Positions 6,818-44,934 of a stretch of DNA of 64,000 nucleotides are shown one piece after another. The notes beneath the pieces are model-generated. The model saw only the letters and a list, made by a program, of their open reading frames with translations. It ran no database searches and was not told where the DNA came from. Position 1 is the first letter of the stretch. Each line of letters opens with the position of its first letter. Source of the DNA: Miltoncostaeaceae bacterium (GTDB taxonomy: Bacteria > Actinomycetota > Thermoleophilia > Miltoncostaeales > Miltoncostaeaceae); contig CAVORO010000003.1 in assembly GCA_963698665.1 (NCBI GenBank), forward strand, positions 1,311,831 to 1,375,830, written 5' to 3'. Made by a program: the position numbers and the translations under genes.

Positions 6818-7369
6818 GTGGACCCGCCGCCAGAGGGCGCGCTCGACCCCCCGGTCGAGACCGAGCGCATCTTCGATGGCGAGGTCGTCCGGCTGCGCGT
6901 CTCGCGCTACCGGCGGCCGTCGGGCGCCGTCGTGCGCCGTGAGGTCATGGACCACGACGGCGCGGTCGTGATGATCCCGGTGGAGGGCGCGCACGTGCTC
7001 ATGGTCCGCCAGCCGCGCGAGGCGGTCGAGCGGAACATGCTCGAGCTGCCGGCCGGAAAGCTGGACGTCCCCGGCGAGGACCCCCTCGAGTGCGCGCGCC
7101 GCGAACTCGCCGAGGAGGTGGGCCGGGCGGCGGACACCTGGCGCTCCCTGGGGGGCTTCTACACCGCCCCGGGGCTCCTGACCGAGTTCATCCATTGCTA
7201 CCTGGCCACCGACCTGCGGCCGATCGCGCACGAGCCGATCCCCGAGGAGGAGATCGAGATCGTCCCCTGGCCGCTGGCGGACCTCGATGCGCTGATCGCG
7301 CGCGTCGAGGACGCCAAGACCCTGATCGGCCTGCTGCGGCTCGCCCGCGAGGTGGACCGCCCCGGCTGA
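6818..7369 (+). CDS. NUDIX hydrolase (ADP-ribose pyrophosphatase-like)
   Basis: Nudix box GKLDVPGEDPLECARRELAEEVG. GTG 6818 lies 2 nt after the preceding stop. Confidence 0.85.
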   Translation: MDPPPEGALDPPVETERIFDGEVVRLRVSRYRRPSGAVVRREVMDHDGAVVMIPVEGAHVLMVRQPREAVERNMLELPAGKLDVPGEDPLECARRELAEEVGRAADTWRSLGGFYTAPGLLTEFIHCYLATDLRPIAHEPIPEEEIEIVPWPLADLDALIARVEDAKTLIGLLRLAREVDRPG

Positions 7370-7422
7370 TCGCCACGATCGTTTCAGCCGACGGCGTCGT
7401 CGGCCGATGTGGCCGTGCAACC

Positions 7423-8235
7423 ATGTCTCGCATGCCCGACACCGGCCTTCTCATGATCGACGGCGCCGTCGTCGATCCGGCGGACGCCGTCCTTCGCCTC
7501 GACGACGGCCTCGTGCGCGGCGACGCCGTGTTCGAGGGGCTCCGCGCCTACGCGGGGCGCGTCCGGACGCCCGGGCGCCATCTGGACCGCCTTGCGCGCT
7601 CCGCCGCCGCCATCGGCATGGACCTCGATCGCGTGGCGGTCGAGGCCGATCTCGCAACCGTCGAGGCGCGACTCGGCGACGTCGACGTGGGGGTGCGCAT
7701 CATCGTCACCCGCGGCGGGCAGCGCGTCCTGCGCGACGAGCCGTTGCCCGCGACCGGCGCCCCCTGGACGCTCGCGCCCGTCGCCCATCGGATCACCCCC
7801 CTGCTGTCGGCGAGCAAGACGGTCTCCTACGCGGCCAACATGCAGGCGAACCGCGTCGCCGCGGCCGCCGGTGCCGATCAGGCGCTCCTCGTACGGGCGG
7901 ACGACGACGCCGTGCTGGAGGGGCCGACGTTCTCGGTCGGCTGGGTCGTGGGAGAGGAGTTGCGCTTCCCGCCGCTGGCGCACGGGATCCTCGACTCGAT
8001 CACGCGCCGCCTCGTGTTCGAGTGCGTCGAGGGCGTGCGCGAGGTCGACGCGCGCGTCGGCGACCTGGCCGAGGTCGACGGGCTGCTCGTGGTCTCGACG
8101 GTGACCGAGTCCGTCCCGGTCGCGGCGCTCGTCGGGGTCGGCGCCTACGACCCCGAGGGCAGGCGGATCCGGGAGATCCGAGCCGCGCTCGCCGAGCGCG
8201 TCCGTTCCGACGTCGGCCTCGCAGGGGTCGCGTGA
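7423..8235 (+). CDS. Class IV aminotransferase (branched-chain amino acid aminotransferase / ADC lyase family)
   Basis: C-terminal 270 aa of ORF 7090..8235 from ATG 7423. Family-like blocks: RGDAVFEGLRAY, HLDRLARSA, SKTVSYAANM, EGPTFSV. Confidence 0.8.
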   Translation: MSRMPDTGLLMIDGAVVDPADAVLRLDDGLVRGDAVFEGLRAYAGRVRTPGRHLDRLARSAAAIGMDLDRVAVEADLATVEARLGDVDVGVRIIVTRGGQRVLRDEPLPATGAPWTLAPVAHRITPLLSASKTVSYAANMQANRVAAAAGADQALLVRADDDAVLEGPTFSVGWVVGEELRFPPLAHGILDSITRRLVFECVEGVREVDARVGDLAEVDGLLVVSTVTESVPVAALVGVGAYDPEGRRIREIRAALAERVRSDVGLAGVA

Positions 8236-8281
8236 GGGCGTCGTCAGTGCCGTCCGAGCCGCCCCGTAGGCTGCCCGACCC

Positions 8282-8944
8282 ATGAGCCCAACAGCAATCA
8301 TCGGCGAGACCTGGGACCTCTACAAGCGGTTCTTCGGTCACTTCGCAAGCGTCGGACTGACGGTCTACGTCGTCGTGGCGGTCATCGTCCTCGTCCTCTC
8401 GTTCCTCGGCCTCTTCGGCCTGCTCCTCGGCCAGATCGTGGTGATCGTCGGCAGCTTCCTGCTGACCGGCGCGCTCGTCACCGCGGTCGGCGACGTCCGC
8501 GACGGCCGCGTCGACCTGAGCGTCGGCGAGACCCTCTCCGCGGCGGTGCCGTTCCTCGGCGCCCTGCTCGTGGCCGGGATCCTCGCCGGCATCGCCATCG
8601 GGATCGGCCTGCTGATCCTGATCGTGCCCGGCGTCATCCTCGCGACGATCTGGTACGTCATCGCTCCTGCGATCGTGCTCGAGCGAACCGGTTGGTCGGC
8701 CAGCTTCGGCCGCAGCATGGCGTTGGTGAAGGGGTACTTCCTGCCGGTCCTCGGCGTCCTGGTGCTGACGATCCTGATCGTCATCGCCGCGGGGATCGTG
8801 ATCGGCCTCATCCTCGCTCCGTTGCCCGACTGGCTCGCCAGCTTCATCGCGACGATCGTGCAGGGCGCCGTGTTCGCGCCCTTCGCCGCGGTCGCCGTCA
8901 CGCTGACCTACTACCGGCTGAAGGAGCTCGAGGGCGGGGCGTGA
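8282..8944 (+). CDS. Integral membrane protein (about 5-6 TM), unknown function
   Basis: Clean 220-aa ORF with strongly hydrophobic segments and high third-position GC. No family recognised with confidence. Confidence 0.7.
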   Translation: MSPTAIIGETWDLYKRFFGHFASVGLTVYVVVAVIVLVLSFLGLFGLLLGQIVVIVGSFLLTGALVTAVGDVRDGRVDLSVGETLSAAVPFLGALLVAGILAGIAIGIGLLILIVPGVILATIWYVIAPAIVLERTGWSASFGRSMALVKGYFLPVLGVLVLTILIVIAAGIVIGLILAPLPDWLASFIATIVQGAVFAPFAAVAVTLTYYRLKELEGGA

Positions 8945-9060
8945 GCCCACGGGTCGGCACGGCGAGGTGACGCCACCGGGCTACCCGCGGTGGCAGTCCG
9001 CGCCGGCCACCCTGCCCCACATCGAGCGCCAGAAGGCAAGTCGCGACGCCACATCCCCCC

Positions 9061-11040
9061 GTGATCCGCTCGCCGCGGATCCGGGCGGGCGGCGCGTCTA
9101 CGCGCTCCGGCCCCGGGCGGGCCGCACCGGGCGTCTCGGCCCGGCTGGCGGAGCTCCTCGACCCCGAGCAACGGGCGGCGGTCGAGGCGCTCGGCGGTCG
9201 CACCCTCGTGCTGGCCGCCGCCGGCTCCGGGAAGACGCGGACGATCGTCGGCGCCATCGCGCATCTGATCGAGTCCGGGACGCCACCCGGCCATGTCGCG
9301 CTGATGACCTTCACGCGCCGCGCCGCGCGGCAGATGCGAACGCGCGCCCAGCAGATCGCCGCGAGCGACCTCTCGGACATGACGGCCGGGACCTTCCACT
9401 CCGTCTGTCAGCGCCTCCTCGTCCGCCACGGCGCGGCGATCGGCCTGCCGTCACCGTTCACCGTGCTGGACGGCGAGGACCAGGCCGATCTCGTGGCGCT
9501 CGCCCGCGACCACGTGCTGCGCGGGCGGGCCACGCGTCCCTCGCTGCCGCGCCCCGGTGAGCTCGCCGGGTTCATCCAGCGCTCGGCGGAACGGGACGCC
9601 CCGCTCGCCGAGGTGGTCGTGGAGCGCAACGGCCGGCTCGTCGACCGGGTGGCGGAGATCGAGGAGATCGCCGCGGAGTACGCGCGCCGAAAGCGGGCCC
9701 TCGCGGCCCTGGACTACGCCGACCTGCTGGTCGAGGGCCGGCGCCTCCTGCGCGAGGCGGGCCCGCGCGCGCGCGGCGCGATCCGGTGGGTGTTCGTCGA
9801 CGAGCTCCACGACGTGAACCCGATCCAGGCGGAGCTGGCCGAGCTCCTCGCCGGAGCCGACGGAGGGCTGTTCGTGGTGGGGGACCCCGACCAGGCGATC
9901 TACGCATGGCGCGGCGCCGACCCCGACGTGGTCGATCGTTTCGCCAGGGATCCCGCCACGCGGGTGGTCAAGCTGGAGCGCAACTACCGATCACGGCCGG
10001 AGGTGGTGGCGCTGGCGCAGCGCATGCTGCCGGGCGGCAACCGGTACGAGCGCCGCCTGCGCGCGGTCCGGCCCCATGGCGGGCCGCCGCCGGTGGTCGC
10101 GCACCTCGCCGACGCACACGACGAGGCGGCGTTCGTGGCGCAGCGGATCGCCGACCTCATGAACGACGGGCGGGCCGCCGGCGATGTCGCCGTGCTCTAC
10201 CGCGCGCACCATCACTCGGTGGATCTGCAGCTGGCGCTGGCCGAGGCCGGGGTGGAGTTCGAGCTGTTCTCGGGTGCGAGATTCGTCGAGAGCGCCCACG
10301 TCAAGGACGGCCTCGCGGCGTGCCGTGTCCGGCACAACCTGCGCGACGGGCTGGCCTGGGTGCGCGTGTTGCGGCTCCTGCCGGGGGTCGGCGACGCCTC
10401 GGCGGCGCGCGCCGCCGAGCTCGCCGTCGGCGCGGCCGGCATCGAGGACGTCGCCGCACGGCTGCGGGCGGCCGGGACGAGGCCGTTGGCGCGCGCGGCC
10501 GGCCTGGTCGACCTGCTCGCCGGACTCGAGCGCCCCGAGGAGCTCATCCTCACGCTCGCCCGGAGCGAGTGGTACAGGGACTCGCTGGTCTCCCGGTATC
10601 CGAATTGGCAGGATCGCGAGGCGGACCTCGCGCGCCTGGCCGAGCTCGCGGCGCGCGCGAGCGACCTCGACGGCTTCCTGGCCGACATGCACCTGGCCGA
10701 GCGCGTCGAGGCCGACGAGGACGTGTCGGGCCCGGCCCGGCGCGTCGCGCTCTCCACGGTGCACCAGGCCAAGGGCCTCGAATGGCCGGTCGTGTTCGTC
10801 CTGCAGGTCGAGTCGGGCGCGTTCCCGTCGGGCTGGGCGGTCAGTGAGGGGAACCTGGACGAGGAGGAGCGCCTGTTCTACGTCGCGCTGACCCGGGCTG
10901 CCGACGAGCTCTACCTGTGCCGCCCGATCGCCGCCCGCCGGGCATGGGACACCGGCCCCGACGCGGTGGCGATCAACTCGGGGCAGGGGTTCCTGGACGT
11001 CGACCTGGAGGGGCTGGTCGAGGAGTGGTCCGTCCGATGA
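9061..11040 (+). CDS. UvrD/PcrA-type ATP-dependent DNA helicase
   Basis: Helicase motifs AAAGSGKTRT, FTRRAARQM, VFVDELHDVNP, VVGDPDQAIYAWRGA, LERNYRSRPEVV, STVHQAKGLEWPVVFV, FYVALTRAADELYL. Confidence 0.9.
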   Translation: MIRSPRIRAGGASTRSGPGRAAPGVSARLAELLDPEQRAAVEALGGRTLVLAAAGSGKTRTIVGAIAHLIESGTPPGHVALMTFTRRAARQMRTRAQQIAASDLSDMTAGTFHSVCQRLLVRHGAAIGLPSPFTVLDGEDQADLVALARDHVLRGRATRPSLPRPGELAGFIQRSAERDAPLAEVVVERNGRLVDRVAEIEEIAAEYARRKRALAALDYADLLVEGRRLLREAGPRARGAIRWVFVDELHDVNPIQAELAELLAGADGGLFVVGDPDQAIYAWRGADPDVVDRFARDPATRVVKLERNYRSRPEVVALAQRMLPGGNRYERRLRAVRPHGGPPPVVAHLADAHDEAAFVAQRIADLMNDGRAAGDVAVLYRAHHHSVDLQLALAEAGVEFELFSGARFVESAHVKDGLAACRVRHNLRDGLAWVRVLRLLPGVGDASAARAAELAVGAAGIEDVAARLRAAGTRPLARAAGLVDLLAGLERPEELILTLARSEWYRDSLVSRYPNWQDREADLARLAELAARASDLDGFLADMHLAERVEADEDVSGPARRVALSTVHQAKGLEWPVVFVLQVESGAFPSGWAVSEGNLDEEERLFYVALTRAADELYLCRPIAARRAWDTGPDAVAINSGQGFLDVDLEGLVEEWSVR

Positions 11041-11300
11041 GCGGTGGCGTCGATCCGGACTTCGGGCCCCTGCGCGCGGTGGTGCCGGACGCGGTGGCGG
11101 CGGGGTTCGCGTACGTGGGGCTGGTCGCGGACGTCCGCGTCTACCGCAACCTGGACAACGGCCGGGAACTCGCGCTCGATCCGCGGGGGGTCGCGCACGA
11201 CGTGCTGGGCGGCGCGTACTGGCCGGTTCCGAGGGTCGCCGCGCTCCACTACGCCCTGGGCGAGACCGATCGGCGTCCCATGCCCGGGCGGGACGGCTGA
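11037..11300 (+). CDS. Hypothetical protein (87 aa)
   Basis: ATG 11037 overlaps the helicase stop (ATGA). The sequence MSGGVDPDFGPLRAVVPDAVAAGFAYVGLVADVRVYRNLDNGRELALDPRG... has high GC3. No family recognised. Confidence 0.45.
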   Translation: MSGGVDPDFGPLRAVVPDAVAAGFAYVGLVADVRVYRNLDNGRELALDPRGVAHDVLGGAYWPVPRVAALHYALGETDRRPMPGRDG

Positions 11301-11322
11301 GGCCACCGGATACGCTCCCGGC

Positions 11323-12105
11323 ATGATCGTCTCGTCCCGACCCGAGGGGTTGGTGCTGGTCCGTCAGGTGGACCATCAGGCCCAGTGCGCGGAGATGGCG
11401 TCACAATGGGGCAACGAGGTGTTCGCGCGGCCCGCCCCCTGGGGCCCGATCGCCGCCGCCGCCGCCTGGCACGACGAGGGGTGGCGATCGTGGGAGGCCG
11501 CACCGGGGGTGGACTCGTCCGGGCGGCCGATCGACTTCGTGGACATCGATCGCGAGACGCACGTCGGGTTGTACGACGACGGGATCGCGACCTGCGTGCG
11601 CCGCGATCCCCTGGCCGGCCTGCTGGTCAGCCTGCACGGGCGTGGCCTGTACGAGCGACGGCTCGGAATCGACGGGCCACGACCGGACCCCGGCTCGCGT
11701 CCCCCCGGCGTCGTCGCCTTCCTCGCGGCGCAAGGGCGGCTGCAGGACGACCTTCGCGAGCGACTCCGCCCGGACCCCGACTGGGAGTGGGCCGCCTATC
11801 GCCTTCTCCAGGCGTTCGACCTGCTCAGTCTCTACCTGGTGTGGCGCGCGCACCCCGCGGGCCGCGAGGGGGCGCTCGCCCGCGTGCCCAGGTGGCCGGG
11901 CGACGAGGGGGTCACGATCACGCTCCGCCGCACCGGGCCATGGCGCGCGTCGGCGGACCCCTATCCGTTCGCGCCCGACGAGGTGTCGCTCGCGGTCGCT
12001 GCGCGCGTGATCCCCGACAGGCGCCACACCGGCCCTGACGACCTGTCAGCGGCCATCGCGGCAGCGCCGCCGGTCACGCTGGCGTACGTCGTCCATCGCC
12101 CCTGA
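11323..12105 (+). CDS. DUF3891 family protein
   Basis: From ATG 11323: MIVSSRPEGLVLVRQVDHQAQCAEMASQWGN..., which resembles the conserved DUF3891 N-terminus as I remember it. Confidence 0.65.
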   Translation: MIVSSRPEGLVLVRQVDHQAQCAEMASQWGNEVFARPAPWGPIAAAAAWHDEGWRSWEAAPGVDSSGRPIDFVDIDRETHVGLYDDGIATCVRRDPLAGLLVSLHGRGLYERRLGIDGPRPDPGSRPPGVVAFLAAQGRLQDDLRERLRPDPDWEWAAYRLLQAFDLLSLYLVWRAHPAGREGALARVPRWPGDEGVTITLRRTGPWRASADPYPFAPDEVSLAVAARVIPDRRHTGPDDLSAAIAAAPPVTLAYVVHRP

Positions 12106-12164
12106 CCATCCGTGGGCGCCGGCATCGTCGCCCGGCGCCCACGGATCCACACCGTTCGAGCGGG

Positions 12165-12374
12165 CTAGTCCTCGTACTTGAACGAGAGCTGCAGGCGGGC
12201 CCGGTAGAGCTCGACCTTGCCGCCCTCACCGACCGTCACGTCGAGCTTGGAGACCTCCGCGACCCTGAGGTCGCGAAGGCTCTTCCCGGCGGTCGCGAGG
12301 GCGTCGGCCGTGGCCGCCTCCCAGCTGTCGGGGCTGGTGCCGATGACGTCGATGATCCGGTAGACGCTTCCCAT
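12165..12374 (-). CDS. Dodecin (flavin-binding) family protein
   Basis: 69 aa, MGSVYRIIDVIGTSPDSWEAATADALATAGKSLRDLRVAEVSKLDVTVGEGGKVELYRARLQLSFKYED, closely resembling dodecins. GGAGGA sits ~6 nt upstream of ATG 12374. Confidence 0.85.
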   Translation of the reverse strand: MGSVYRIIDVIGTSPDSWEAATADALATAGKSLRDLRVAEVSKLDVTVGEGGKVELYRARLQLSFKYED

Positions 12375-12484
12375 CGCGATCCTCCTTGTCGGCCGCCCCA
12401 CGGATCGCGCCGTGGGGGGCGAATGACCGAAACGGCCATGATCATCGCCCCCCGGGAGCGTGTGGGCAAGGCACTGACCGACGG

Positions 12485-13279
12485 TCAGATCCCGGTCAGC
12501 CCCTCGGAGCGGAGGCGCGCGAGGTTGACGGCGGCCCGCATCCGCATGGCGCGGTCGGCCGCGAGGAGGACCTCGCCCCGCTCGGGTGCCCCCAGACGCA
12601 GGGCGCGCGCCGGATCTTCGGCACGGAGCGCGGTGTAGGCGCAGATCACGGCGTCGAGCACGGCGGCGTCGTCGATCGCCTCCCAGTCGTCGGCGTCCGC
12701 CCGCGGCGCCCAGCCCCCGAGGTCCACGGCGCGCGCGACGATGGCCGCCGCCGCCAGGGTGCCCGACGGACGCGCCCTGCCCTCGCCCTTCGGCCGGTAG
12801 CGCGGCGCGCGAAGCCCGAGCCATGCGCGTCGGTACTCGGCGAACTCCATCGTGGAGGCGTCGACGCGGCCCGACTCGAGCATGATCTGGCGGAGCGTCG
12901 CGTCGGGCACGGCCTCGACGACGTCCCCCGCCCGCGTCGCCAGACCCTCGCGAAGGTCCTCGCCCCGGAGGCCACCGTGGAGTGCCGCGAGACGCCTGCG
13001 CGAGCTGGGGAGCATGGGGATGTCGAGCCACGCGAGCAGCCGCTCGACGTCGCGCGCGCCCTCCTCGTTCGCGACGACCAGCGGCGCGTCCACGCACACC
13101 CGCGTACAGGTCGGGACCGCCGCGAGCACCTCCGCGTCGCCGTCGGCGCGGCGGATGTCGAGCAGCGACGCGTCGGCGCCGACGAGCGCGACCACCGACG
13201 GGCGACCCGTGCCGATGAGCGCGGCCCGCTGCTGGAGATGCACCCCGACGGCCGCCGGGGAATCGTGGTGCTCGCTCAT
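12485..13279 (-). CDS. Hypothetical protein, possibly DUF429-like (RNase H-fold)
   Basis: Clean 264-aa ORF with high GC3. The family call is weak and from memory. Confidence 0.6.
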   Translation of the reverse strand: MSEHHDSPAAVGVHLQQRAALIGTGRPSVVALVGADASLLDIRRADGDAEVLAAVPTCTRVCVDAPLVVANEEGARDVERLLAWLDIPMLPSSRRRLAALHGGLRGEDLREGLATRAGDVVEAVPDATLRQIMLESGRVDASTMEFAEYRRAWLGLRAPRYRPKGEGRARPSGTLAAAAIVARAVDLGGWAPRADADDWEAIDDAAVLDAVICAYTALRAEDPARALRLGAPERGEVLLAADRAMRMRAAVNLARLRSEGLTGI

Positions 13280-13341
13280 CGGAGGAGTCCGCGCAGCTTG
13301 CCAGTTCCGCCGGTCGGGCTTAGGCTCCGGTTGGCCGCCGC

Positions 13342-13677
13342 GTGGGCGGCCTCGCCGGGGGGAAGAGGTTGAGCGGACTGCTCCTGTTGTTGATCGGTCT
13401 CGTGTCGCCGTGGGTGGTGCATCTCGCCCCCCCGCGCCAGCGGCCGCTCGCGCTCGTCGGAGTCGTCGCGGTCCTCTTGTTGTTCGCCATCTTCGCGACG
13501 AACCCCATCCTGGCCTGGCAGATGTGGGCGGGCCTCGCCGCGGGCGTCGTGTCGATCCTCGCGGTGACGGCGATGTCGGGCGGCGGCGGACTGCACCTCG
13601 GCCGCGGTGGCGGGTCGCGCCGCCGCCCGAGCACGCGCCCGCGGCGCGACCACGAGGACCTGACCGGCGAGGTCTAG
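13342..13677 (+). CDS. Small membrane protein (3 TM), unknown function
   Basis: LSGLLLLLIGLVSPWVVHL..., LALVGVVAVLLLFAIFA and WAGLAAGVVSILAVTAM, followed by a basic tail. The start is uncertain (GTG 13342 or TTG 13369). Confidence 0.4.
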   Translation: MGGLAGGKRLSGLLLLLIGLVSPWVVHLAPPRQRPLALVGVVAVLLLFAIFATNPILAWQMWAGLAAGVVSILAVTAMSGGGGLHLGRGGGSRRRPSTRPRRDHEDLTGEV

Positions 13678-13841
13678 TCGGTCCGGGGGCGCGACGTCCG
13701 CGTCCCCACGGACCACGGCCGCCCGGCCGCGTCGCCCCGGCTGTCCCAGGTGTCCGGGAGCCCGCGTGGGACGGCCGGCCGAGTCGTCGGCGCCCGGCGC
13801 AGGCCTTCGGCGGCCGATGCCCCGCCCACGGGCCCGTCCTG

Positions 13842-21397: not shown

Positions 21398-22279
21398 GTG
21401 GCCGTCCTCACCTTCCAAGACATGATCGCCCGCCTCGGCGCCTACTGGGCGGAGCGCGGGTGCGCGCTCATGACGCCGTACCACACCGAGGTCGGGGCGG
21501 GCACGTTCAACCCCGCGACGTTCCTCCGAAGCCTCGGCGCGGAACCCTGGCGGGCGGCCTACGTCGAGCCGTCGATCCGCCCCACCGACGGGCGCTACGG
21601 CGAGAACCCGTTTCGGCTCCAGCACTACTTCCAGTTCCAGGTGGTCCTCAAGCCCTCACCCGACGACGTGCAGGACCTCTACCTGGAGTCGCTCGCCGCG
21701 CTCGGCCTGCGTCCCGCCGAGCACGACGTCCGTTTCGTCGAGGACGACTGGGAGGGGCCGACGCTCGGTGCGTGGGGCCTCGGCTGGGAGGTGTGGCTCG
21801 ACGGCATGGAGATCACCCAGTTCACGTACTTCCAGCAGGTCGGCGGGCTCGATCTGGCCCCCGTCACGGTCGAGCTGACCTACGGGCTCGAGCGCATCGC
21901 CATGTACCTGCAGGGTGTGCGATCGGTCTACGACATCGCCTGGACCGACGACCTGACCTATGGGGACGTGTACCGCGACGCCGAACGCCAGTGGAGCGCC
22001 TACAACTTCGAGGTCGCCGACACCGACGCGCTCTTTCGCGCGTTCGCCACGCACGAGGCCGAGTGCGGGCGGGCACTCGAGGCCGGGCTCGTCCTGCCCG
22101 CGTACGACCAGGTCCTCAAATGCAGCCACGCCTTCAACCTCCTCGACGCGCGCGGCGTCGTCAGCGTGACCGAACGCGGGAGCTACATCCTGCGGGTCCG
22201 CGCCCTCGCGGCGCGGTGCGCCAGGGCGTGGGTGGACCGGGCTGCGCACGGCCGCCCGGAGGAGGGTCCGGTTGCCTGA
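21398..22279 (+). CDS. glyQ: Glycine--tRNA ligase alpha subunit
   Basis: From GTG 21398: [44 protein letters not shown]...[21 protein letters not shown]. Confidence 0.93.
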
Positions 22280-24356
22280 CCTCCTCGTCGAGGTGGGCTG
22301 CGAGGAGCTGCCCTCGAGCGCCTGCCGCGCCGTCCTCTCGCAGGCGCCCGCGCTCGTCGCGCGGGCGCTCGCCGACGCCGAACTGGTCAGCGACGGCGCA
22401 CCCACGGTCTGGGTCGCCCCCCGGCGGATCGCCGTGGTCGTCCCGGGCGTGCCGGAGGCGCGCCCGGGGCGATCGCGCTCCCTGCGCGGACCTGCGGCAT
22501 CGGCGGCCTTCGCCGACGGCGCGCCGACGCGCGCCGCGGAGGGCTTCGCCGCGCGCCACGGCCTTGTGCCGGCCGACCTGGCGGTGCGAGCGCAGGACGG
22601 ACGCGAGTTCGTGTTCGCGGACATCGAGGAGCCGAGCGTCCCCACCGAGGACCTGGTGCCGGCCCTCGTCGAGCGCCTCCTGACCGGTCTCCGGTTTCCC
22701 AAGAGCATGCGGTGGGGTGACGGCGAGGGCCTTCGCTTCTCGCGGCCGGTCCGCTGGCTGGTGGTGATGCTCGGCGAGCGCCCGCTGCCGGTCGAGGTCG
22801 CCGGACTGACGGCGACGCCCATGAGCGCCGGACACCGGTTCCTGGGCGGACCGGTGGTGATCCCCGGCGCCGCCGGGTACCGCGAGGCGCTCCGTGGCGT
22901 CGGCGCGTTGGTCGACCACGATGAGCGCCGGGCCGTGATCGTGGCGGGGCTCGACGCGGCCGCCGACGCCCTGGGGCACCGGTGGCGCGACCCGACGGGG
23001 AAGATGGACGAGGTCGTCCATCTGGTGGAGATGCCGAGCGTGATCGCCGGTCGCTTCGCCGAGGAGCACCTGCGGCTTCCCCCCGAGGTCCTCGTCGCCG
23101 CGATGCAGGGACATCAGCGCTACTTCCCGCTCGAGCTCCAGGACGGGAGCCTGGCCGCCGGCTTCCTCGCCGTCTCGAACGGCGACCCCGCGCACGCGAC
23201 GGTGATCGGCCGCGGGTACGAGGAGGTGCTCGAGGCCCGCCTCCAGGACGCCGCGTTCAGCTTCGACCGCGATCGGGAAGCGGGGCTGGGCGAGCTGGAC
23301 GCTCGCCTCGAGCGGATCGTGTTCGGCGCCAGGCTCGGCACCATGGCCGCGCGCCGCGACCGGCTGGTGGCGGGGACGGGGTCGATCGCGGCGTCGATCG
23401 GGCTGTCGGACGCCGACGCCGCGGCGGCCACTGAGGCGGCCCGCCTCGCCAAGGCCGACCAGGGCGCGGTGCTCGTCGCGGAGTTCAGCGAGCTCGAGGG
23501 CCTCGTGGGCGCCGAGTACGCCCGCCTCGAGGGCGCGCCCGAGCCAGTGTGGCGTGCGATCGCCGAGCAGTACCTGCCGCTCGGGCCGGGATCGCCGACT
23601 CCGAGCGGCCCCGTCGGCGCGGCGCTGGCGCTGGCCGACAAGCTCGACGCGCTGACCGGGTTCTTCCTGGCGGGCGAGGCGCCGACGGGGTCTCGCGATC
23701 CGCACGGGCTGCGCCGCGCCGCCGCGGGCGTCGTGCGCATCTGCCTCGAGCACGGCATCGATCTCGACGTCGGGGCGCGCATCGCGGACGTCGCGGGGGC
23801 CTACGCCGGGCAGACGGACGACCTTCGGCCCGATGCCGGGGTGCTCGCGGCGCTCGCGGGCTTCGTCGACGACCGGCTCGTGTTCCAGCTCGGCGAGGAG
23901 GGCGTGGGGGAGGAGGCCGCCCGGGCGGCGATCGGCGCGGAGCTGGGCGGCCTGGCATCGACGGCGCGGTGGGCTCGGTCGATCGAGACGGCGCGCGCCA
24001 CCGACGGATTCTGGCGCTGCTGGACCGCCGCGACGAGGACCGCCAAGCTCGCGGCGCGTGGCCCGGACGACCCCGGAGGTCCGGCGGTGGAGGACGCCGA
24101 GCTGGCGCTGGCCGGTGCGCTCGTGCCCGCGGCGGACGGCATCGCGGCCGCCCGGGTCGCGGGGTCGCTCCCGGAAGCGCTGGCCGCCGCGGATCCGCTC
24201 GCCACCGCCGTCGACGTCTTCCTGACCGAGGTGCTCGTCAACGCGGAGGACCCCGAGGCGCGCGCCCGCCGGTTCCGGCTGGTGCGCGAGGCGGCGGCGA
24301 CCCTGTCGCGGATCGCGGACTTCGCGCAGGTGAGCGAGCGGGCCGGCGAGCGGTGA
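22272..24356 (+). CDS. glyS: Glycine--tRNA ligase beta subunit
   Basis: (L/M)[16 protein letters not shown]-terminus and a 694-aa length typical of GlyS. TTG 22272 overlaps glyQ by 8 nt. Confidence 0.9.
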
Positions 24357-39529: not shown

Positions 39530-40580
39530 TCACTCCTCGTCGGCGGTCCGGGTCGTGAGCAGGACCGCGACCCGATCCTGGAGCGCACGAGCGGTGCCGT
39601 GCGACACACCGTTGTGGAGGACGGCGAACGTCAGCATCCGGTTCGGTCCGCCCGCCGTGCCCTTCGGGACGACGTAGCCCGCGAGCGTCGACACCGCCGG
39701 TGTGAAGAGCGTCCCGGTCTTCGCCCGGACGCGACCGGCGGCGGCCGTCCCGACCATCCGTCCGCTCAGCGTGCCCGTGCGTCCCGCCACGGGGAGCCCG
39801 TTGCGAAGCTGCCGGAAGTAGGTCTGCTCACGGAGCGCCACCAGCAGGTCGGCGACCTCGCCCGCGCTCGCCCTGTTGGCGGGCGACAGGCCGGACCCGT
39901 CCGCAAGGCGCGCACGCGCGCCGAGCTCGGCCGCGTACCTGCGCGCCCGGGCGGTGCCGGCCGCGTTCGAGCCGCCCCCGAGGCGGTTCATCAGGACCTG
40001 GGCGCGGAAGTTGTCCGAGGGCCCGAGGATGCCGCCCGCGCTCACGGCCTCGGGCACGTACCTGAGACCGGCGGCGACGGTGAAGACCTTGGTGACCGAC
40101 GCGAGGACCAGCGGGCGCGTGGTGCCCTCGGAAAAGAGCGTCCGTCCGAAGGCGTCGCGGACCTCGATCGCGCTCGAACGCCCGCTGCGCGTCGCGATGT
40201 CGGCGAGTTCCTCCTCGAGGCTCGGTGGCAGGAGCTCGAGCTCGGGCACGCCCCGGAGCGACTCCGTCGGGACGTAGCCGCGGCGGCCGCGGGGGTAGCG
40301 AAGGCGCGCCCACCAGCCGTCCGCGGCCCTCGACGACGCCCTCGAGTTCGGCCGCGCGCTGGACACCCGGCACCGTCCCCCGCACGGGGGCCGCCGACCG
40401 GGGTGCGGTGCGCATCTCGAGCGCCGGATCGACGGATCGGACCCAGAACTCGTCCGCGATCGCCGGCTCGCCGGACGGCACCGGCGCCGCCGCCGCCCCG
40501 AGCGAGGGTGTGAGGACGAGTCCGAGCGCCGCGGCGGACACCGCGAGCGCCCGCTGGGCGGAGCGAGGCACGGGCGGCAT
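39530..40580 (-). pseudogene. PBP4-family D-Ala-D-Ala carboxypeptidase/endopeptidase with signal peptide and N-terminal SH3b-like domain; one frame break near 40320-40330
   Basis: The catalytic part is in the frame of ORF 39530..40690 (SVTKVF = SxxK, GPSDN = SxN, KTGTL = KTG). The signal peptide and first half of the SH3b-like domain are in the frame of ORF 39828..40580 (MPPVPRSAQRALAVSAAALGLVLTPSLGAAAAP...VRSVDPALEMRTAPRSAAPVRGTVPGVQRAAELEGVVEG). This continues as DGWWARLRYPRGRRGYVPTESL in the other frame. The span is 1051 nt. Confidence 0.7.
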
Positions 40581-41386
40581 CCTATGCGCTGGTCACGGCC
40601 ACGGCCGCCTGCTCGAGGCGGTTGCAGCACCGCCGACCGCAGCGGAGGTGGTCCGGGCGCCGCCGCGTATCCCGAGGGGGACGTCGTCACGCCGAACGGG
40701 AGCGGCCCGGTGCCGATGCGTCATTCGCCTCGAGTCGGAGCGGCATCCGTCGCGGTCCTGGCCGCTGCCGCGGCGGCGACCGCGTTGCTCGCCGATCCGC
40801 CCTCGGGCAGCGCCGCGGCTCCTGCCCACGCGTGGAGCCAACTCGCGCCGGCCGCCGCCGGCGTTCCCACCCCTCGCCGCCCCGGACGTCGGCTCGGGTC
40901 CCGAGGTGGTTCCCTACCCGCAGCCGTCCTCGGCGACGGACGTCAACGCCTTCGGCTTCGGGATCCTGCGGCCCAGGCCGCGCGGCGGGTGGCGGGTCGA
41001 CGCGCGCGGCGTCGACGGACGGGTCCAGGCCCGGTGCGCCACGACTCCCGCCTCGGTGAGGTGCGCGCGACAGAGGTGAGCGACCGGCGTCGAGCACCCC
41101 GAGTCGGCGAGGCGTCGCGAACGAGTACCCTGGTCGACGCATCGGAGCTTCACCTCCGCTGCCACGGGGTCGGTCGCTCGCACGGCGCGACCCCAATTCT
41201 CTGCCTGGGGGCCGCGCCTCGGGGCGATCGCGTCGCGGAGCGGTGCGTGCGGGGACCCGGTCGTCTCGGGCGCCGACGATGCCGACTCGGTCGAGCGCGC
41301 GCACCTCGAGGCGCTCCCGAAGGAGGACGGTCCCGCCCGCCCATGCCCGTCGGCGGGTGCCGCGCGCACGGCCCCGGGCGGAGCCA

Positions 41387-41469
41387 TGGGGACGGTGGGA
41401 GTCGAACCCACACCACCTCTCGGTGAGCGGATTTTGAGTCCGCCGCGTCTGCCGTTCCGCCACGTCCCC
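41387..41469 (-). tRNA. tRNA-Leu (anticodon CAA), CCA not encoded
   Basis: Reverse complement: GGGGACGTGGCGGAACGGCAGACGCGGCGGACTCAAAATCCGCTCACCGAGAGGTGGTGTGGGTTCGACTCCCACCGTCCCCA. 7-bp acceptor stem, anticodon loop CTCAAAA, long variable arm, and T-arm GTGGGTTCGACTCCCAC. Confidence 0.9.
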
Positions 41470-41512: not shown

Positions 41513-41902
41513 TCAGCGCGTCCCCGTCGCGTGCCCGTCGGCCTGGGCGGCCGCGACCATCCGCGACAGCTCCAAGACCAGCGCCCGCGACGGCGCCGCC
41601 TGCGGATTCGTTCCCGTCCAGCCGGCGATCACCGATCTGCGCGACACTCCGTCGAGATCGGTGCGCCACTCGCACGAGGGGCCGTCGCGCAGCGCCGCGG
41701 GGGCGTCGACGTTCGGCGGAAGCGCGGTGATCCCGGCGGCACGGGTCCGCTCCGCGAGCAGCGTGCGCGTGGGCGCGTCGAGGGACGCGATCCGGCGCCA
41801 GCGCTCGTGGGCCACGCTCACGTCGACCGCGCCGTCCAGCGCCACGCGCATGCCGCTGCCCCCGGGCCGGCACACGTAGCCGACGATGAGCCCGTCGCTC
41901 AC
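41513..41902 (-). CDS. Hypothetical protein (129 aa), translationally coupled to the upstream multidomain protein
   Basis: GTG 41902 overlaps the upstream TGA (GTGA). VSDGLIVGYVCRPGGSGMRVALDGAVDVSVAHERWRRIASLDAPTRTLLAERTRAAGITALPP... has high GC3. No family recognised. Confidence 0.6.
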   Translation of the reverse strand: MSDGLIVGYVCRPGGSGMRVALDGAVDVSVAHERWRRIASLDAPTRTLLAERTRAAGITALPPNVDAPAALRDGPSCEWRTDLDGVSRRSVIAGWTGTNPQAAPSRALVLELSRMVAAAQADGHATGTR

Positions 41903-43416
41903 GGGAGGGACGCGCTCGTTCCGGCGTTCTCGACGCCGGTGTCGATGGAGAACGCGGGCGGCGTGCCGGTGCCGCCGTAGGAGAAGGACTCGGGGGAGAT
42001 CGAGTTGAGCGCCTCGAGGAAGGTCACGTAGTGCTGCGGCGCAACGACGTTGCCCACGGACATGATGTTGTCGTTGTTCTCGACCACGGGCGGCGCGACA
42101 CCGCCGCCCATCGCCGGCAGGGCGGCGTGGTCGGGCGCCGCGCCGATCACGCCGGGGCTGCCCGCCCCCGGGGCCATGCCGCCGGCCGGGGCGGCGTACT
42201 CGTCGTCGAGCCCGAACAGATGCCCCGTCTCGTGGAGCGCCTTGATCTGCTCCTCGCCGCCGCCGATCCGGATGTCGACCCGCTGCCAGGAGGCGTCCGC
42301 ACCCGCGCCCTCCTCGCCTTCGGCGACCACGGTGATCCGGGCTCGGTCGATCCCGTTGGCCGCGAGATGGTCCGCGACCCCCTGCGCGCGCCTGCGCGAG
42401 AGGCGAAGGTTGTCGCGCGCATCGCCCGCGGTCGAGGCGTGGCCCGTGACGGTGATCGGCGCGCCGCCGCCGGGCGTGCCGGGCGCTTGATCGACGATCA
42501 GCTTGTCGAGGTGCATGTCCCCTGGGTCGCCGGCGACCTCCTTGCTCGTCGACACCGACGCGTAGAGGTCGTCCGACCCCTCCTGGTACTCGAGCGAGTA
42601 GTTGAGCCATTCCTCGGTGACCCCCATGTGCGCGCTGCTCATCTCGAGGGTCGCGCCGGTCGCACCCGCGCCCGAGGTCATGCCCGCGCCCATGGACTGG
42701 TCACCGGGCGGGGCCTTGTACACCGTCGCCTTGCAGTGGTCGTCGGGCAGGTGCCCCTGATGGACGTCCACCTCGACCGACACCCCGGCGTAGAGATCCG
42801 GCCAGCGGTCGGAGACGAAGTAGTGCTGGTCGCCCCACGCGTCGCGCACCATGGTCGCGTAGTCGGCCGCGAGCGTCGCACGCTCACCGGCGCTCCAGCG
42901 CCAGTTGGTGCGGATCTCGTTGCGGCGCGCGCCCGCGCTCGGGAAGCGCGCGTTGACGTCGGCGGCCGCGGCCGCGAAGTCGGGCGTGAGAGGGATCGCC
43001 ATGTGCCGCCGGTCGACGCCGAGGGACGGCAGGAACTCGAATCCCACGCGCAGGCGCACGCGCAGGATCTGCGCGTGCGGGTCATAGACCACCTCGAACC
43101 CGCCTCTCCCGGTTGCCGACTGGAAGTCGACGCCCGCCGGCGTCGGCATGAGCCCACGGGCGACGAAGGCGTCGCGCGCGGGGTCGCCGGCCCGCGCGAG
43201 CGCCCGGAGGTGCCGCGCGACATGCGCGTTCCCCGCCCCTTGCTGGAGCGCCAGCACCGCATCGGGCCGTGGATCGCGCGCGAGCCGGGGGGGCGGTTGG
43301 AGGCGCACGCCGAGGTCGTCGCCAGGCGCGGGCGGTTCGCCCCTTCGGCCCTCGACACGCGTTCGTGCGCGGGACACGCGGCGATGCTCGTCGGTGCGCG
43401 GGCGGCGGTCAAGCAC
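41899..43416 (-). CDS. Multidomain protein: N-terminal LQxxAGNxxV motif, unknown central region, OmpA/MotB-like peptidoglycan-binding domain, HExxHxxGxxD zinc-metallopeptidase motif
   Basis: 505-aa ORF with very high GC3. aa 55-70: LALQQGAGNAHVARHL. aa ~321-369: ITVTGHASTAGDARDNLRLSRRRAQGVADHLAANGIDRARITVVAEGE. aa 392-406: ALHETGHLFGLDDEY. No signal peptide. The start (GTG 43416) is uncertain. Confidence 0.8.
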   Translation of the reverse strand: MLDRRPRTDEHRRVSRARTRVEGRRGEPPAPGDDLGVRLQPPPRLARDPRPDAVLALQQGAGNAHVARHLRALARAGDPARDAFVARGLMPTPAGVDFQSATGRGGFEVVYDPHAQILRVRLRVGFEFLPSLGVDRRHMAIPLTPDFAAAAADVNARFPSAGARRNEIRTNWRWSAGERATLAADYATMVRDAWGDQHYFVSDRWPDLYAGVSVEVDVHQGHLPDDHCKATVYKAPPGDQSMGAGMTSGAGATGATLEMSSAHMGVTEEWLNYSLEYQEGSDDLYASVSTSKEVAGDPGDMHLDKLIVDQAPGTPGGGAPITVTGHASTAGDARDNLRLSRRRAQGVADHLAANGIDRARITVVAEGEEGAGADASWQRVDIRIGGGEEQIKALHETGHLFGLDDEYAAPAGGMAPGAGSPGVIGAAPDHAALPAMGGGVAPPVVENNDNIMSVGNVVAPQHYVTFLEALNSISPESFSYGGTGTPPAFSIDTGVENAGTSASLP

Positions 43417-43464: not shown

Positions 43465-44829
43465 TCAGCCCACTTCGGCGTCCGCGGCGCGCGGTGCCTG
43501 CGCGGCCACGATGCCCGTGAGCGCCCGCAGCACCGTCGGGTCGAACGCCCCGGCGCCGAGCACCCGCAACCGCTCGAGCGCCGCGGCCGCGCCCGACGAT
43601 GCGTCGCGGACGTCGAGGAAGGCGATCGTGCATGCGACGACCCGGGACTCCGCGGGGATGTTCGCGCCGACGAGGCCGTCGGGCACCCCCGTCCCGTCCC
43701 AGCGTTCGTGGCGGTGCAGGGCGATCGGCACCACGGCGCGCAGCACCGGCGAGCGCGCGAGCACGCGCGCATCGGCCCGCGCGCACTCCGCACGGGCCCG
43801 GCGCTCGATCTCGTCGTGCCCCGCCCATCCGAGCCGCGACCCGGGGGTGCCCAGTCCGACGTCGGCCGCGAGCGCTGCGACGCGGCTTCGCGCCACCTGC
43901 CCTGGGTCGAGCCCCGCTCGTGCCGCGACGAGCCCGCTGAGCCGGGCGGCCTCCAGGGCGCGGGCGACCCGCGCGGCGTCGCCGCCGCCGGCACGCTCGA
44001 CGAGCGCGAGCGCCTCGGCCTCGCCGTCGCCGTCGCGATCGCCGTCGGGCGCATCACGGCCGAGCGCCCACGCGCCGACCGTGCGTCCACCGCCGCCGGC
44101 GCGGGCATCCGCCAGCGCCCGTTCGGCGGCATCGACGAGGGCGGCCGGCGACGGGACCGCCGGGCCACCCAGCGCCACCCCGATCGACACGGGGATCGGC
44201 GCCGCGCCGTCCTCGGTGCCGGCCGGTCCCCGCGCGGCGGTCCGGAGCTTCTCGCAGACGCGCTCCGCCGCGGCCACGTCCGGGACGTCGACGGCGAGGG
44301 CCGCGACCCGCCCGCCGTGCCAGCGGACGACCTCGTCGCTCGCCCGGAGCGATGCGCGCATGCGACCCGCGAGCGCGTCGGTGAGCGCCGCCCCCGCGGT
44401 GGGGCCGAGGGCGGCCGTCCGCGCGTCCAGCTCGTCGGGATGGACCACGAGGAGGGCCGGGGTCGTCCCCCGTCGCGCGAGCTCGCGCCGGAGCGCCGCG
44501 AGCAGGTCGCTCGCGGCCCCCGTCCCGGCGCGCTCGGCCACCGTCCCGGCACCGGCCGCGGCCCCGACCAGGGCGGCGAGCTCGTCGAGGGCCGCGACGT
44601 CCTCGTCCGTCCACCCCCCGGACGCCCGGCCGAGCACCGCGATGCGCCCGAGCTCCGCGCCGTCGCGCCCGCGGATCGGCACGCCGAGCGCGCGACGCAG
44701 GCCGCGCCCCAGGACGTCGAGGCCCGACCCGCCACTCGCGGGCCGCCCGGTGTGGTCGGTCAGCACCACGAGGCCGGTCGGCGCGCCGGCGGCGCGCGCG
44801 GCGGTACGCGCGAGTCGATCGAGGTCCAT
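43465..44829 (-). CDS. GAF / degenerate GGDEF / HD-GYP signalling protein (c-di-GMP phosphodiesterase-type)
   Basis: From ATG 44829: a GAF-like N-domain, then a GGDEF-like domain with a degenerate signature (RWHGGRVAAL in place of GGDEF), then the HD-GYP motif HRHERWDGTGVPDGL. Confidence 0.8.
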   Translation of the reverse strand: MDLDRLARTAARAAGAPTGLVVLTDHTGRPASGGSGLDVLGRGLRRALGVPIRGRDGAELGRIAVLGRASGGWTDEDVAALDELAALVGAAAGAGTVAERAGTGAASDLLAALRRELARRGTTPALLVVHPDELDARTAALGPTAGAALTDALAGRMRASLRASDEVVRWHGGRVAALAVDVPDVAAAERVCEKLRTAARGPAGTEDGAAPIPVSIGVALGGPAVPSPAALVDAAERALADARAGGGGRTVGAWALGRDAPDGDRDGDGEAEALALVERAGGGDAARVARALEAARLSGLVAARAGLDPGQVARSRVAALAADVGLGTPGSRLGWAGHDEIERRARAECARADARVLARSPVLRAVVPIALHRHERWDGTGVPDGLVGANIPAESRVVACTIAFLDVRDASSGAAAALERLRVLGAGAFDPTVLRALTGIVAAQAPRAADAEVG

Positions 44830-44934
44830 GGGCGGTGGCGCTCGGGGACGGGGTGTCGGGCGCGGCGGGCACACCGCGCTCTCGGACTTCATCGACCTCC
44901 GCCAGGGCCGGCGTGAGCCGCGCCCCGTCGGTGG

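Follow-up and report, generated by a model that had tools for sequence, protein, structure and literature searches.

A coupled gene pair in a Miltoncostaeaceae genome

We analysed a stretch of 64,000 nucleotides (the window) from contig CAVORO010000003.1 of a Miltoncostaeaceae bacterium (assembly GCA_963698665.1), in which two overlapping genes on the reverse strand encode proteins of 505 and 129 amino acids (Table 1). An earlier note, made from the letters alone, had put this pair forward as orphan cargo of an extracellular contractile injection system (eCIS; CIS, contractile injection system). Both open reading frames (ORFs) and the GTGA overlap between them were found exactly where that note had placed them. 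We call the larger product the toxin and the smaller one the partner, after the roles proposed for them below.

Table 1. Coordinates of the gene pair, its encoded segments and the adjacent tRNA gene in the window.
Feature	Position	Strand	Basis
Toxin (cargo) gene, 505-aa model from the first GTG	41899-43416	-	ORF call
Partner gene, 129 aa, proposed immunity/inhibitor protein	41513-41902	-	ORF call
GTGA overlap, partner GTG start on the TGA stop of the 505-aa gene	41899-41902	-	sequence
tRNA-Leu(CAA), bounds the cassette, not a functional part	41387-41469	-	ARAGORN
Arg-rich hydrophilic disordered leader, aa 1-45	43282-43416	-	pLDDT <50
Conserved tag LALQQGAGNAHVARHL, aa 55-70, proposed CIS loading signal	43207-43254	-	conservation
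Alpha/beta domain of unknown fold, aa 96-270	42607-43131	-	pLDDT >94
OmpA-like domain (peptidoglycan-binding type), aa ~271-385	42262-42606	-	Pfam PF00691, Foldseek
Snapalysin-like zinc-peptidase segment, aa 386-485	41962-42261	-	invariant residues, M7 similarity
Zinc motif HETGHLFGLDDEY within the peptidase segment	42196-42234	-	
Candidate Met-turn NIMSVG, aa 450-455	42052-42069	-	

The public gene model of exactly the same sequence (P0275, 452 aa) starts at V54 (43257), directly before the tag motif described below. The GC content at third codon positions (GC3) is 0.77 in codons 1-53 of the 505-aa model and 0.94 in the remaining codons. Compared with a 95-98% identical relative, codons 1-53 carry three synonymous changes, one non-synonymous change and a GTG to TTG change at the start. 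A leader of 30-90 aa, variable in sequence and length, is present in all homologues. Because every homologue has such a leader and the changes in codons 1-53 are mostly synonymous with a start codon kept, the long model appears plausible despite doubt on the start codon and the coding status of the leader. A gene-calling artefact was rejected in view of the GC3 of 0.94, the conserved family and the confident predicted folds. Overlaps of -1 to -16 nt between the two genes recur in most relatives and suggest translational coupling. When the cassette was scanned for promoters and terminators, none was detected.

Architecture of the 505-residue protein

A word-indexed search returned 44 close homologues of about 500 aa, nearly all metagenomic, which are alignable from the LQQ..GN motif through the C-terminus; when 1.84 billion representatives were searched exhaustively with a hidden Markov model (HMM), 261 clusters (50% identity) reached E<=1e-30. 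Across 41 sequences, G62, H395, E396, H399, G402, L403, D405, E406, Y407, M452, S453, H462 and Y463 are invariant and N63 is conserved at 90% or more. The AlphaFold2 (AF2) model of the protein has a predicted local distance difference test score (pLDDT) of 87 and a predicted template modelling score (pTM) of 0.81, with a globular body at aa 96-485. The Arg-rich N-terminus, predicted to be disordered, is followed by helices at aa 51-61, 63-75 and 79-86; the tag LALQQGAGNAHVARHL, singled out by the earlier note, sits at the break between the first two, in a helix-break-helix arrangement.

The 505-aa protein contains no hydrophobic core of a Sec or Tat signal, as the earlier reading had it, and export by either route was rejected on this ground. 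The same is true of the family: none of 101 representatives has a hydrophobic N-terminus, so that an ordinary signal peptide in the homologues, which had been named beforehand as a sign against the cargo reading, did not turn up. Absence of a Sec/Tat signal together with a hydrophilic disordered leader is what is expected of CIS cargo.

An OmpA-like segment had been read at aa ~321-369. In Pfam, the OmpA model (PF00691) covers residues 320-370 at E=5.9e-11 and 43 bits against a cut-off of 27.2, and Foldseek aligns the model with Pal and OmpA C-terminal domains at template modelling (TM) scores up to 0.78 and E ~1e-5. The profile score above the curated threshold and the fold both assign the domain to the OmpA-like class, and its extent in the model is wider than the segment first read (Table 1). 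The residues of OmpA domains that bind diaminopimelate are an Asp and an Arg, which we take to be D271 and R286 in Acinetobacter baumannii OmpA. The canonical Arg (R343, in LSxRRA) is invariant in the present family.

The C-terminal segment carries the zinc motif HETGHxxGLxDEY (ALHETGHLFGLDDEY, aa 393-407). Its core HETGHLFGLDDEY is invariant in the family, contains HExxHxxGxxD followed by Tyr, and aligns pairwise with snapalysin HETGHVLGLPDHY; the assignment to the snapalysin/M7 type with Asp as third ligand, made from the letters, thereby gains family-level similarity. The motif NIMSVG, which had been proposed as a Met-turn and keeps that status as a candidate, is present; its family form (N)IMS(V)G, with M452 and S453 invariant, resembles (E)LMS(G)G of snapalysin and lies ~38 residues further from the Asp. 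Pfam Peptidase_M7 matches 34 of the 41 members (best E=1.7e-6). When the family profile was compared with PDB sequences, OmpA-like domains were found at E ~1e-7 and snapalysin (1c7k, 4hx3) at E=4e-4. In the window protein the M7 match (aa 393-423) covers ~30 residues with E=0.027 and 15 bits, below the gathering score of 25; NCBIfam was in accord with Pfam, its snapalysin model scoring 17.7 against a cut-off of 300, with a weak M6 match besides. No whole-domain M7 match was obtained by profile in Pfam or NCBIfam, or by fold among the listed Foldseek matches. Because the Pfam score is sub-threshold and a whole-domain match is missing, the zinc centre is snapalysin-like only locally; judged from sequence, the family-level signal is real.

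Snapalysin itself (MEROPS M7; PDB 1c7k, 4hx3) has HETGHxxGLxDxY with Asp as third ligand, followed by an (L/I)MSxG Met-turn-like motif. It differs in its length of 132 aa and in being secreted, with a signal peptide and a propeptide. The present protein aligns with it over ~30 residues at a Pfam score under threshold, has ~38 extra residues between the Asp and the candidate Met-turn, and carries an OmpA-like domain upstream of the active-site helix.

The middle of the protein, in which nothing had been recognised by eye, is occupied by a domain (aa 96-270; pLDDT >94) with invariant W174, W194, W205 and H227 and without a match in Pfam, NCBIfam, PDB or BFVD. The domain accompanies the OmpA and peptidase parts in the DUF4157 fusions described below. 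When the complete model of the toxin was compared with PDB and BFVD by Foldseek, all matches listed were OmpA-like, and the other two domains of the toxin are therefore unclassified by fold.

Relatives of the toxin are linked to contractile injection systems

A scan of GTDB species genomes, in which all listed relatives have at most 41% identity, found at least 33 further distant loci in at least 8 phylum-level groups. CIS genes, searched for by phmmer with the CIS proteins of locus L005, lie within 10 kb of the toxin relative in 16 of ~40 loci; they encode sheath, tube, AAA ATPase, Pvc16 and eCIS_core/DUF4157 proteins, and these 16 loci span Actinomycetota, Chloroflexota, Deinococcales, Cyanobacteria, Gemmatimonadota and Bacteroidota. 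L005, from a Chloroflexota metagenome-assembled genome, holds a 47%-identical homologue and a small partner. A CIS-type AAA ATPase gene lies on one side of this pair, and genes for eCIS_core, Pvc16_N, sheath, tube, DUF6760, tube, eCIS_core and VgrG on the other.

A second link comes from fusions. DUF4157 (PF13699, now eCIS_core) was originally named 'PVC-metallopeptidase', in a study of PVC-type polymorphic toxins (PMC3482391), and is a marker of eCIS toxins (PMC8213781). Pfam eCIS_core is found in 31 of 34 family members longer than 600 aa, N-terminal to the same OmpA-peptidase module and with E down to 1e-33. The DUF4157 signature HExxHxxQ occurs in 31 of 101 long representatives (~30%), and in relatives from Deinococcales, Bacteroidota and Cyanobacteria a fused DUF4157 domain precedes the module. 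The eCIS connection that the earlier note had drawn from an N-terminal motif is supported by the relatives.

The close subfamily is mostly found away from such clusters. One of its members is inside a CIS cluster (L005), and L002, L003, L004, L043, L006, L007, L041 and L042 have unrelated housekeeping neighbourhoods without CIS genes. Since members sit in unrelated neighbourhoods, the two genes appear to move as a cassette of which most close copies are orphans. Carriers of orphan pairs include Solirubrobacter taibaiensis KCTC 29222, S. soli DSM 22325 and S. phytolaccae KCTC 29190.

In L005, a gene for a 223-aa Cys-rich protein (9132-9803) lies between the CIS ATPase gene and the toxin gene. 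A homologue of this protein is encoded directly downstream of the toxin homologue in the Bacteroidota locus L031 (10528-11157), where no partner-family gene was found.

A short tag is common to the toxin and other proteins of CIS loci

The tag forms an LQQxxGNAxVAR helix. The strict pattern [LM]Q...GN..V occurred 32 times in six-frame ORFs of all fetched loci (1.1 million residues), compared with 0.18 times in shuffles. Its carriers, in their N-terminal regions, are toxin homologues, small DUF4157 proteins that stand alone (such as L005 11901-12623, with LQQERGNAYV) and unannotated ORFs beside CIS genes. The 'eCIS/DUF4157-style' label given to the tag at the outset agrees with its presence in stand-alone DUF4157 proteins and other CIS-locus ORFs, with the correction that a DUF4157 domain is missing from the window protein and that the tag lies outside what the Pfam model of DUF4157 describes. 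Members of the toxin family mostly have either the tag or a fused DUF4157. An hhalign comparison of toxin leaders with unrelated tagged leaders from CIS loci gave 93.5% probability and E=2.2e-7 over 28 columns, a figure that is partly circular because the second sequence set was picked by the motif.

We found no Pfam domains in seven other tag-bearing ORFs from CIS loci. Tagged ORFs of this kind (L027 5005-9042, L023 3292-6078, L018 5817-7076, L032 5470-7137 and L035 10360-11745) are candidate additional cargo. One tagged protein of 1346 aa has a weak apolipoprotein-like coiled-coil match and may be a tape-measure-like effector.

Cargo is loaded through disordered N-terminal leaders via an AAA+ ATPase (bioRxiv 10.64898/2026.05.27.728243), and eCIS leaders are described as lacking both order and sequence conservation (PMC11297309; bioRxiv 10.64898/2026.05.27.728243). 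The tag may serve in such loading. That it is conserved even though most close copies are orphans argues, from sequence, that it is still in use there.

The partner is co-conserved with the toxin and exported in some lineages

In more than 30 loci, an HMM built iteratively from the small ORFs detected a partner homologue as the next gene downstream of the toxin, and it had no other match in those loci. Co-occurrence in relatives, which the earlier note had asked about, is accordingly the rule, and the two genes are adjacent, co-oriented and strictly co-conserved as toxin and immunity genes are. A database profile search collected 80 partner members, all annotated as 'hypothetical' and without a Pfam domain; neither Pfam nor NCBIfam matches the 129-aa ORF, in which no domain had been recognised before. 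In a reverse check from partner P0080, the upstream gene proved to be a tagged toxin homologue (hhalign E=1.8e-35).

The AF2 model of the partner (pLDDT 92.8) shows an antiparallel sheet with two helices behind it. Foldseek matched it with Mago nashi only, at TM 0.55-0.59 and a borderline E of ~1e-3, a likeness which on the model suggests a protein-binding platform rather than homology. The snapalysin inhibitors sermetstatin/SSI were considered as relatives of the partner and set aside, as they reached only a non-significant Foldseek rank.

A Sec or lipoprotein signal is present on the partner in 12 loci, mostly of diderm phyla (Cyanobacteria, Gemmatimonadota, Proteobacteria, Oligoflexia, Deinococcales, one Anaerolineales and one Solirubrobacteraceae), and the toxins of these loci have no signal. 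Partners without a signal are found in Actinomycetota and most Chloroflexota, the window partner included. L012, an Anaerolineales CIS locus, holds two toxin-partner pairs in tandem (9497-13790), the first partner with a lipoprotein signal and the second without. Duplicated partner domains occur in the Deinococcales loci L013 (11468-), L014 (11486-) and L017 (4394-5341), where each protein has a Sec signal and two tandem partner domains. The layout of the pair had first been read as either toxin/immunity or effector/chaperone. Because partners are exported in 12 loci with signal-less toxins, these sequences favour an immunity protein or inhibitor over a loading chaperone. Envelope-acting effector-immunity pairs of type VI secretion systems (T6SS) likewise combine a signal-less toxin with an exported partner.

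Genomic surroundings of the cassette

The large ORFs of the window are housekeeping genes, among them CTP synthase, UvrD, GlyS beta subunit, MMPL, DnaG, PolA, ribosomal protein S1 and similar. As had been noted from the letters, the window contains no injection-system genes: phmmer searches of the 64 kb with queries for sheath, tube, ATPase, Pvc16, eCIS_core and VgrG gave no match.

The tRNA-Leu(CAA) gene begins 43 nt beyond the partner-gene stop, close to the distance first estimated. L001, the locus of a relative with 95-98% identity, runs collinear to the window and alone has this tRNA adjacency in common with it; other members of the family are in unrelated contexts, and the tRNA link does not extend to the family. 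A tRNA-linked genomic island was rejected on this ground. The base composition of the cassette (GC 72-75%, flanks 67-82%) gives no island signature.

In L001 (10001-11742, compared with window 41513-43416), a 1-nt deletion in the HETGH codons and an indel in the partner gene split both genes, which points either to a cassette that has become a pseudogene or to an error in long-read assembly. About 1.08 kb of a Metallophos (metallophosphoesterase) gene of L001 (12408-13488) is missing at window 40845-40860, ~0.5 kb from tRNA-Leu.

A signalling gene with GGDEF and HD-GYP-type HD_5 domains (43465-44892, reverse strand) lies 48 nt upstream of the cassette on the same strand, and a GAF-GGDEF gene is near the pair in L042 too (7255-9303). 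A Peptidase_S13 (D-Ala-D-Ala carboxypeptidase/PBP4-like) gene is near the cassette in the window (~39530-40690, reverse strand) and in L001; in L002, an unrelated context, another is the next gene downstream of the pair (11862-12641), by coincidence or as a recurring cell-wall neighbour. The glycyl-tRNA synthetase beta subunit gene (heterotetrameric GlyQS type) is at 22170-24356 (forward strand). The genome has ~75% GC.

Discussion

From these sequence comparisons, the gene pair probably encodes an orphan cargo toxin of a CIS/eCIS (PVC-type) and its protective partner. The leader and the LQQxxGNAxVAR helix would direct the toxin to a loading apparatus, either the CIS AAA+ ATPase or spike-tube components or both, encoded elsewhere in the genome, and the toxin would be packed into the CIS and injected. 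The payload would consist of the alpha/beta domain, the OmpA-like domain and a snapalysin-like zinc endopeptidase centre with H395, H399 and D405 as predicted zinc ligands, E396 as catalytic base, Y407, and M452 in the Met-turn. In the target envelope, the OmpA-like domain may dock the payload on peptidoglycan or on the stem peptide, and the peptidase would cleave an envelope substrate there. The coupled 129-aa protein, as a flat beta-sheet/two-helix platform, would bind and neutralise the toxin, in the cytoplasm in this monoderm-type lineage and as an exported protein in diderm lineages.

A number of observations weigh against this account. On the side of delivery, the pair is neither within nor next to a CIS gene cluster in the 64-kb window, and no CIS gene was found within 10 kb in seven of eight close-subfamily contexts. 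PF13699 has no match at E<=1 in the 505-aa protein and none in its neighbours, and the leader comparison has the circularity stated above. As to the payload, the canonical Asp of the OmpA-like domain is replaced by Ser in nearly all members (GHAS aligned to GYTD), which makes peptidoglycan binding doubtful; because of this replacement we put it forward only as a suggestion. The M7 score of the window protein is below threshold, and no metallopeptidase was among the 50 listed Foldseek matches of the toxin model. Finally, the partner fold matched no known immunity protein or protease inhibitor in Foldseek, and a toxin that acts on extracellular peptidoglycan creates no obvious need for a protector in the cytoplasm.

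The last point bears on what the partner does. With the cargo reading kept, the partner could instead be a cytoplasmic chaperone or loading adaptor that keeps the toxin unfolded or bridges it to the CIS, which we consider unlikely. It has no signal peptide here or in the Actinomycetota and Chloroflexota relatives, the gene overlap suggests stoichiometric co-production, and the Mago-like flat sheet with two helices could be a protein-binding platform. Many eCIS toxins have no immunity genes, and adaptor-type partners have been described, such as the DUF4157 protein Sle2 that binds the effector Sle1 (PMC8213781, PMC13277306). However, the 12 partners with Sec or lipoprotein signals accompany signal-less toxins, and partner and cargo would therefore be in different compartments at loading. 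Tandem toxin-partner arrays and duplicated partner domains are, moreover, typical of immunity genes.

A further alternative gives up delivery altogether. The pair would then be a CIS-independent domesticated module of a cytoplasmic zinc peptidase and its inhibitor, acting in a toxin-antitoxin-like manner or in regulated autolysis or cell-wall precursor turnover, with the leader as a relic or in other use. The housekeeping contexts of the window and of seven of eight close-subfamily members, which hold no CIS genes, agree with this, as does a cytoplasmic partner; OmpA-like domains can also bind cytoplasmic stem-peptide precursors, an idea raised in PMC3482391. We nevertheless find such domestication quite improbable: the tag is kept in an orphan-rich subfamily, down to G62 and N63, and is portable, being common to unrelated CIS-locus proteins; one close-subfamily member is within a CIS cluster; and the neighbours differ in every orphan context, which fits a mobile cassette and not a conserved pathway. 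That the large protein is a wall-anchored protease exported by Sec, Tat or the type VII secretion system, with the small protein unrelated to it, has in its favour the Arg-rich N-terminus and the usually extracytoplasmic location of OmpA-like domains, and is highly improbable given that the 505-aa protein and 101 of 101 representatives are without a hydrophobic N-terminal segment, that WXG, LXG or YxxxD/E type features were not seen on reading the sequence, and that the small ORF is strictly co-conserved.

The orphan-cargo reading places the toxin close to several known systems. The closest published kind is the 'Tox-OmpA' group of PVC-type toxins, predicted computationally (Zhang, de Souza, Anantharaman, Iyer, Aravind 2012; PMC3482391). 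These are also signal-less, with predicted PVC/eCIS delivery and an OmpA-superfamily domain in the toxin position, and their architecture (PVC-metallopeptidase/DUF4157 and then an OmpA module) is that of ~30% of the present family representatives. Compared by description, the present family is probably the published Tox-OmpA family. The published description presents the class as non-catalytic, puts OmpA at the very end of the C-terminus and lists no immunity protein, whereas the OmpA-like domain is flanked here by a conserved 175-aa domain and then the snapalysin-like zinc site, and a partner is co-conserved; the window protein also differs in having the short tag only and no DUF4157.

Similarity is broader with the eCIS-associated toxins (EATs) that carry DUF4157/eCIS_core (Geller 2021, PMC8213781; Danov 2024, PMC11297309), which have a hydrophilic disordered N-terminus, no Sec signal and, for the family, a genetic link to CIS clusters and to DUF4157. 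Immunity genes lie next to some EATs, and EAT10 works on peptidoglycan from the periplasmic side (PMC8213781, PMC11297309). Unlike these, the window copy is not beside a CIS and has no DUF4157 domain, and a defined motif is common to the present family and its locus neighbours, whereas eCIS leaders have been described as having none. The AlgoCIS cargo Cgo1/Cgo2 and the PVC payloads, whose loading depends on the leader and goes via an AAA+ ATPase (bioRxiv 10.64898/2026.05.27.728243; PMC11495950), are alike by architecture alone: a loading region that is N-terminal and disordered, in some cases a DUF4157 domain, and an effector domain that varies. The envelope-acting T6SS pairs Tae/Tai and Tge/Tgi also couple a signal-less effector of a contractile machine to an adjacent small immunity gene whose product is exported or lipidated in diderms, although machine, toxin chemistry and partner fold differ and many of the present partners are cytoplasmic.

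Searches of the searchable literature turned up neither the tag motif nor OmpA plus metallopeptidase CIS effectors. Measured against that literature, the snapalysin-like centre in the module, the co-conserved partner family of varying compartment, the leader motif replacing DUF4157 and the orphan cassette would be new. Tentatively, all parts may be read together: the tag as a portable loading signal, the payload as a peptidoglycan-docked snapalysin-like protease and the partner as a Mago-fold immunity family, a combination that we think possible and would not count on. If it is true, the tag signal serves a widespread CIS lineage (Actinomycetota, Chloroflexota and others) and substitutes for a fused DUF4157, cargo encoded anywhere in a genome could be loaded in trans, and orphan cargo could be found by the motif alone. 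The payload would then be catalytic, unlike the non-catalytic 'Tox-OmpA', and previously unrecognised, and the compartment of the partner would track the envelope type of the host. If instead no CIS is involved, the pair is no more than an uncharacterised cassette of peptidase and inhibitor.

Engineering of CIS/eCIS machines as tools of protein delivery is under way, and how their cargo is recognised is still open. A short tag common to many unrelated cargo-like proteins would offer a testable recognition element and a simple way of listing cargo that is not adjacent to a CIS. The toxin adds a catalytic reading, from predicted catalysis, to the 'Tox-OmpA' class. The partner family would be among the few candidate immunity proteins of eCIS toxins, and as such would support an antibacterial role of these systems in soil Actinomycetota and Chloroflexota.

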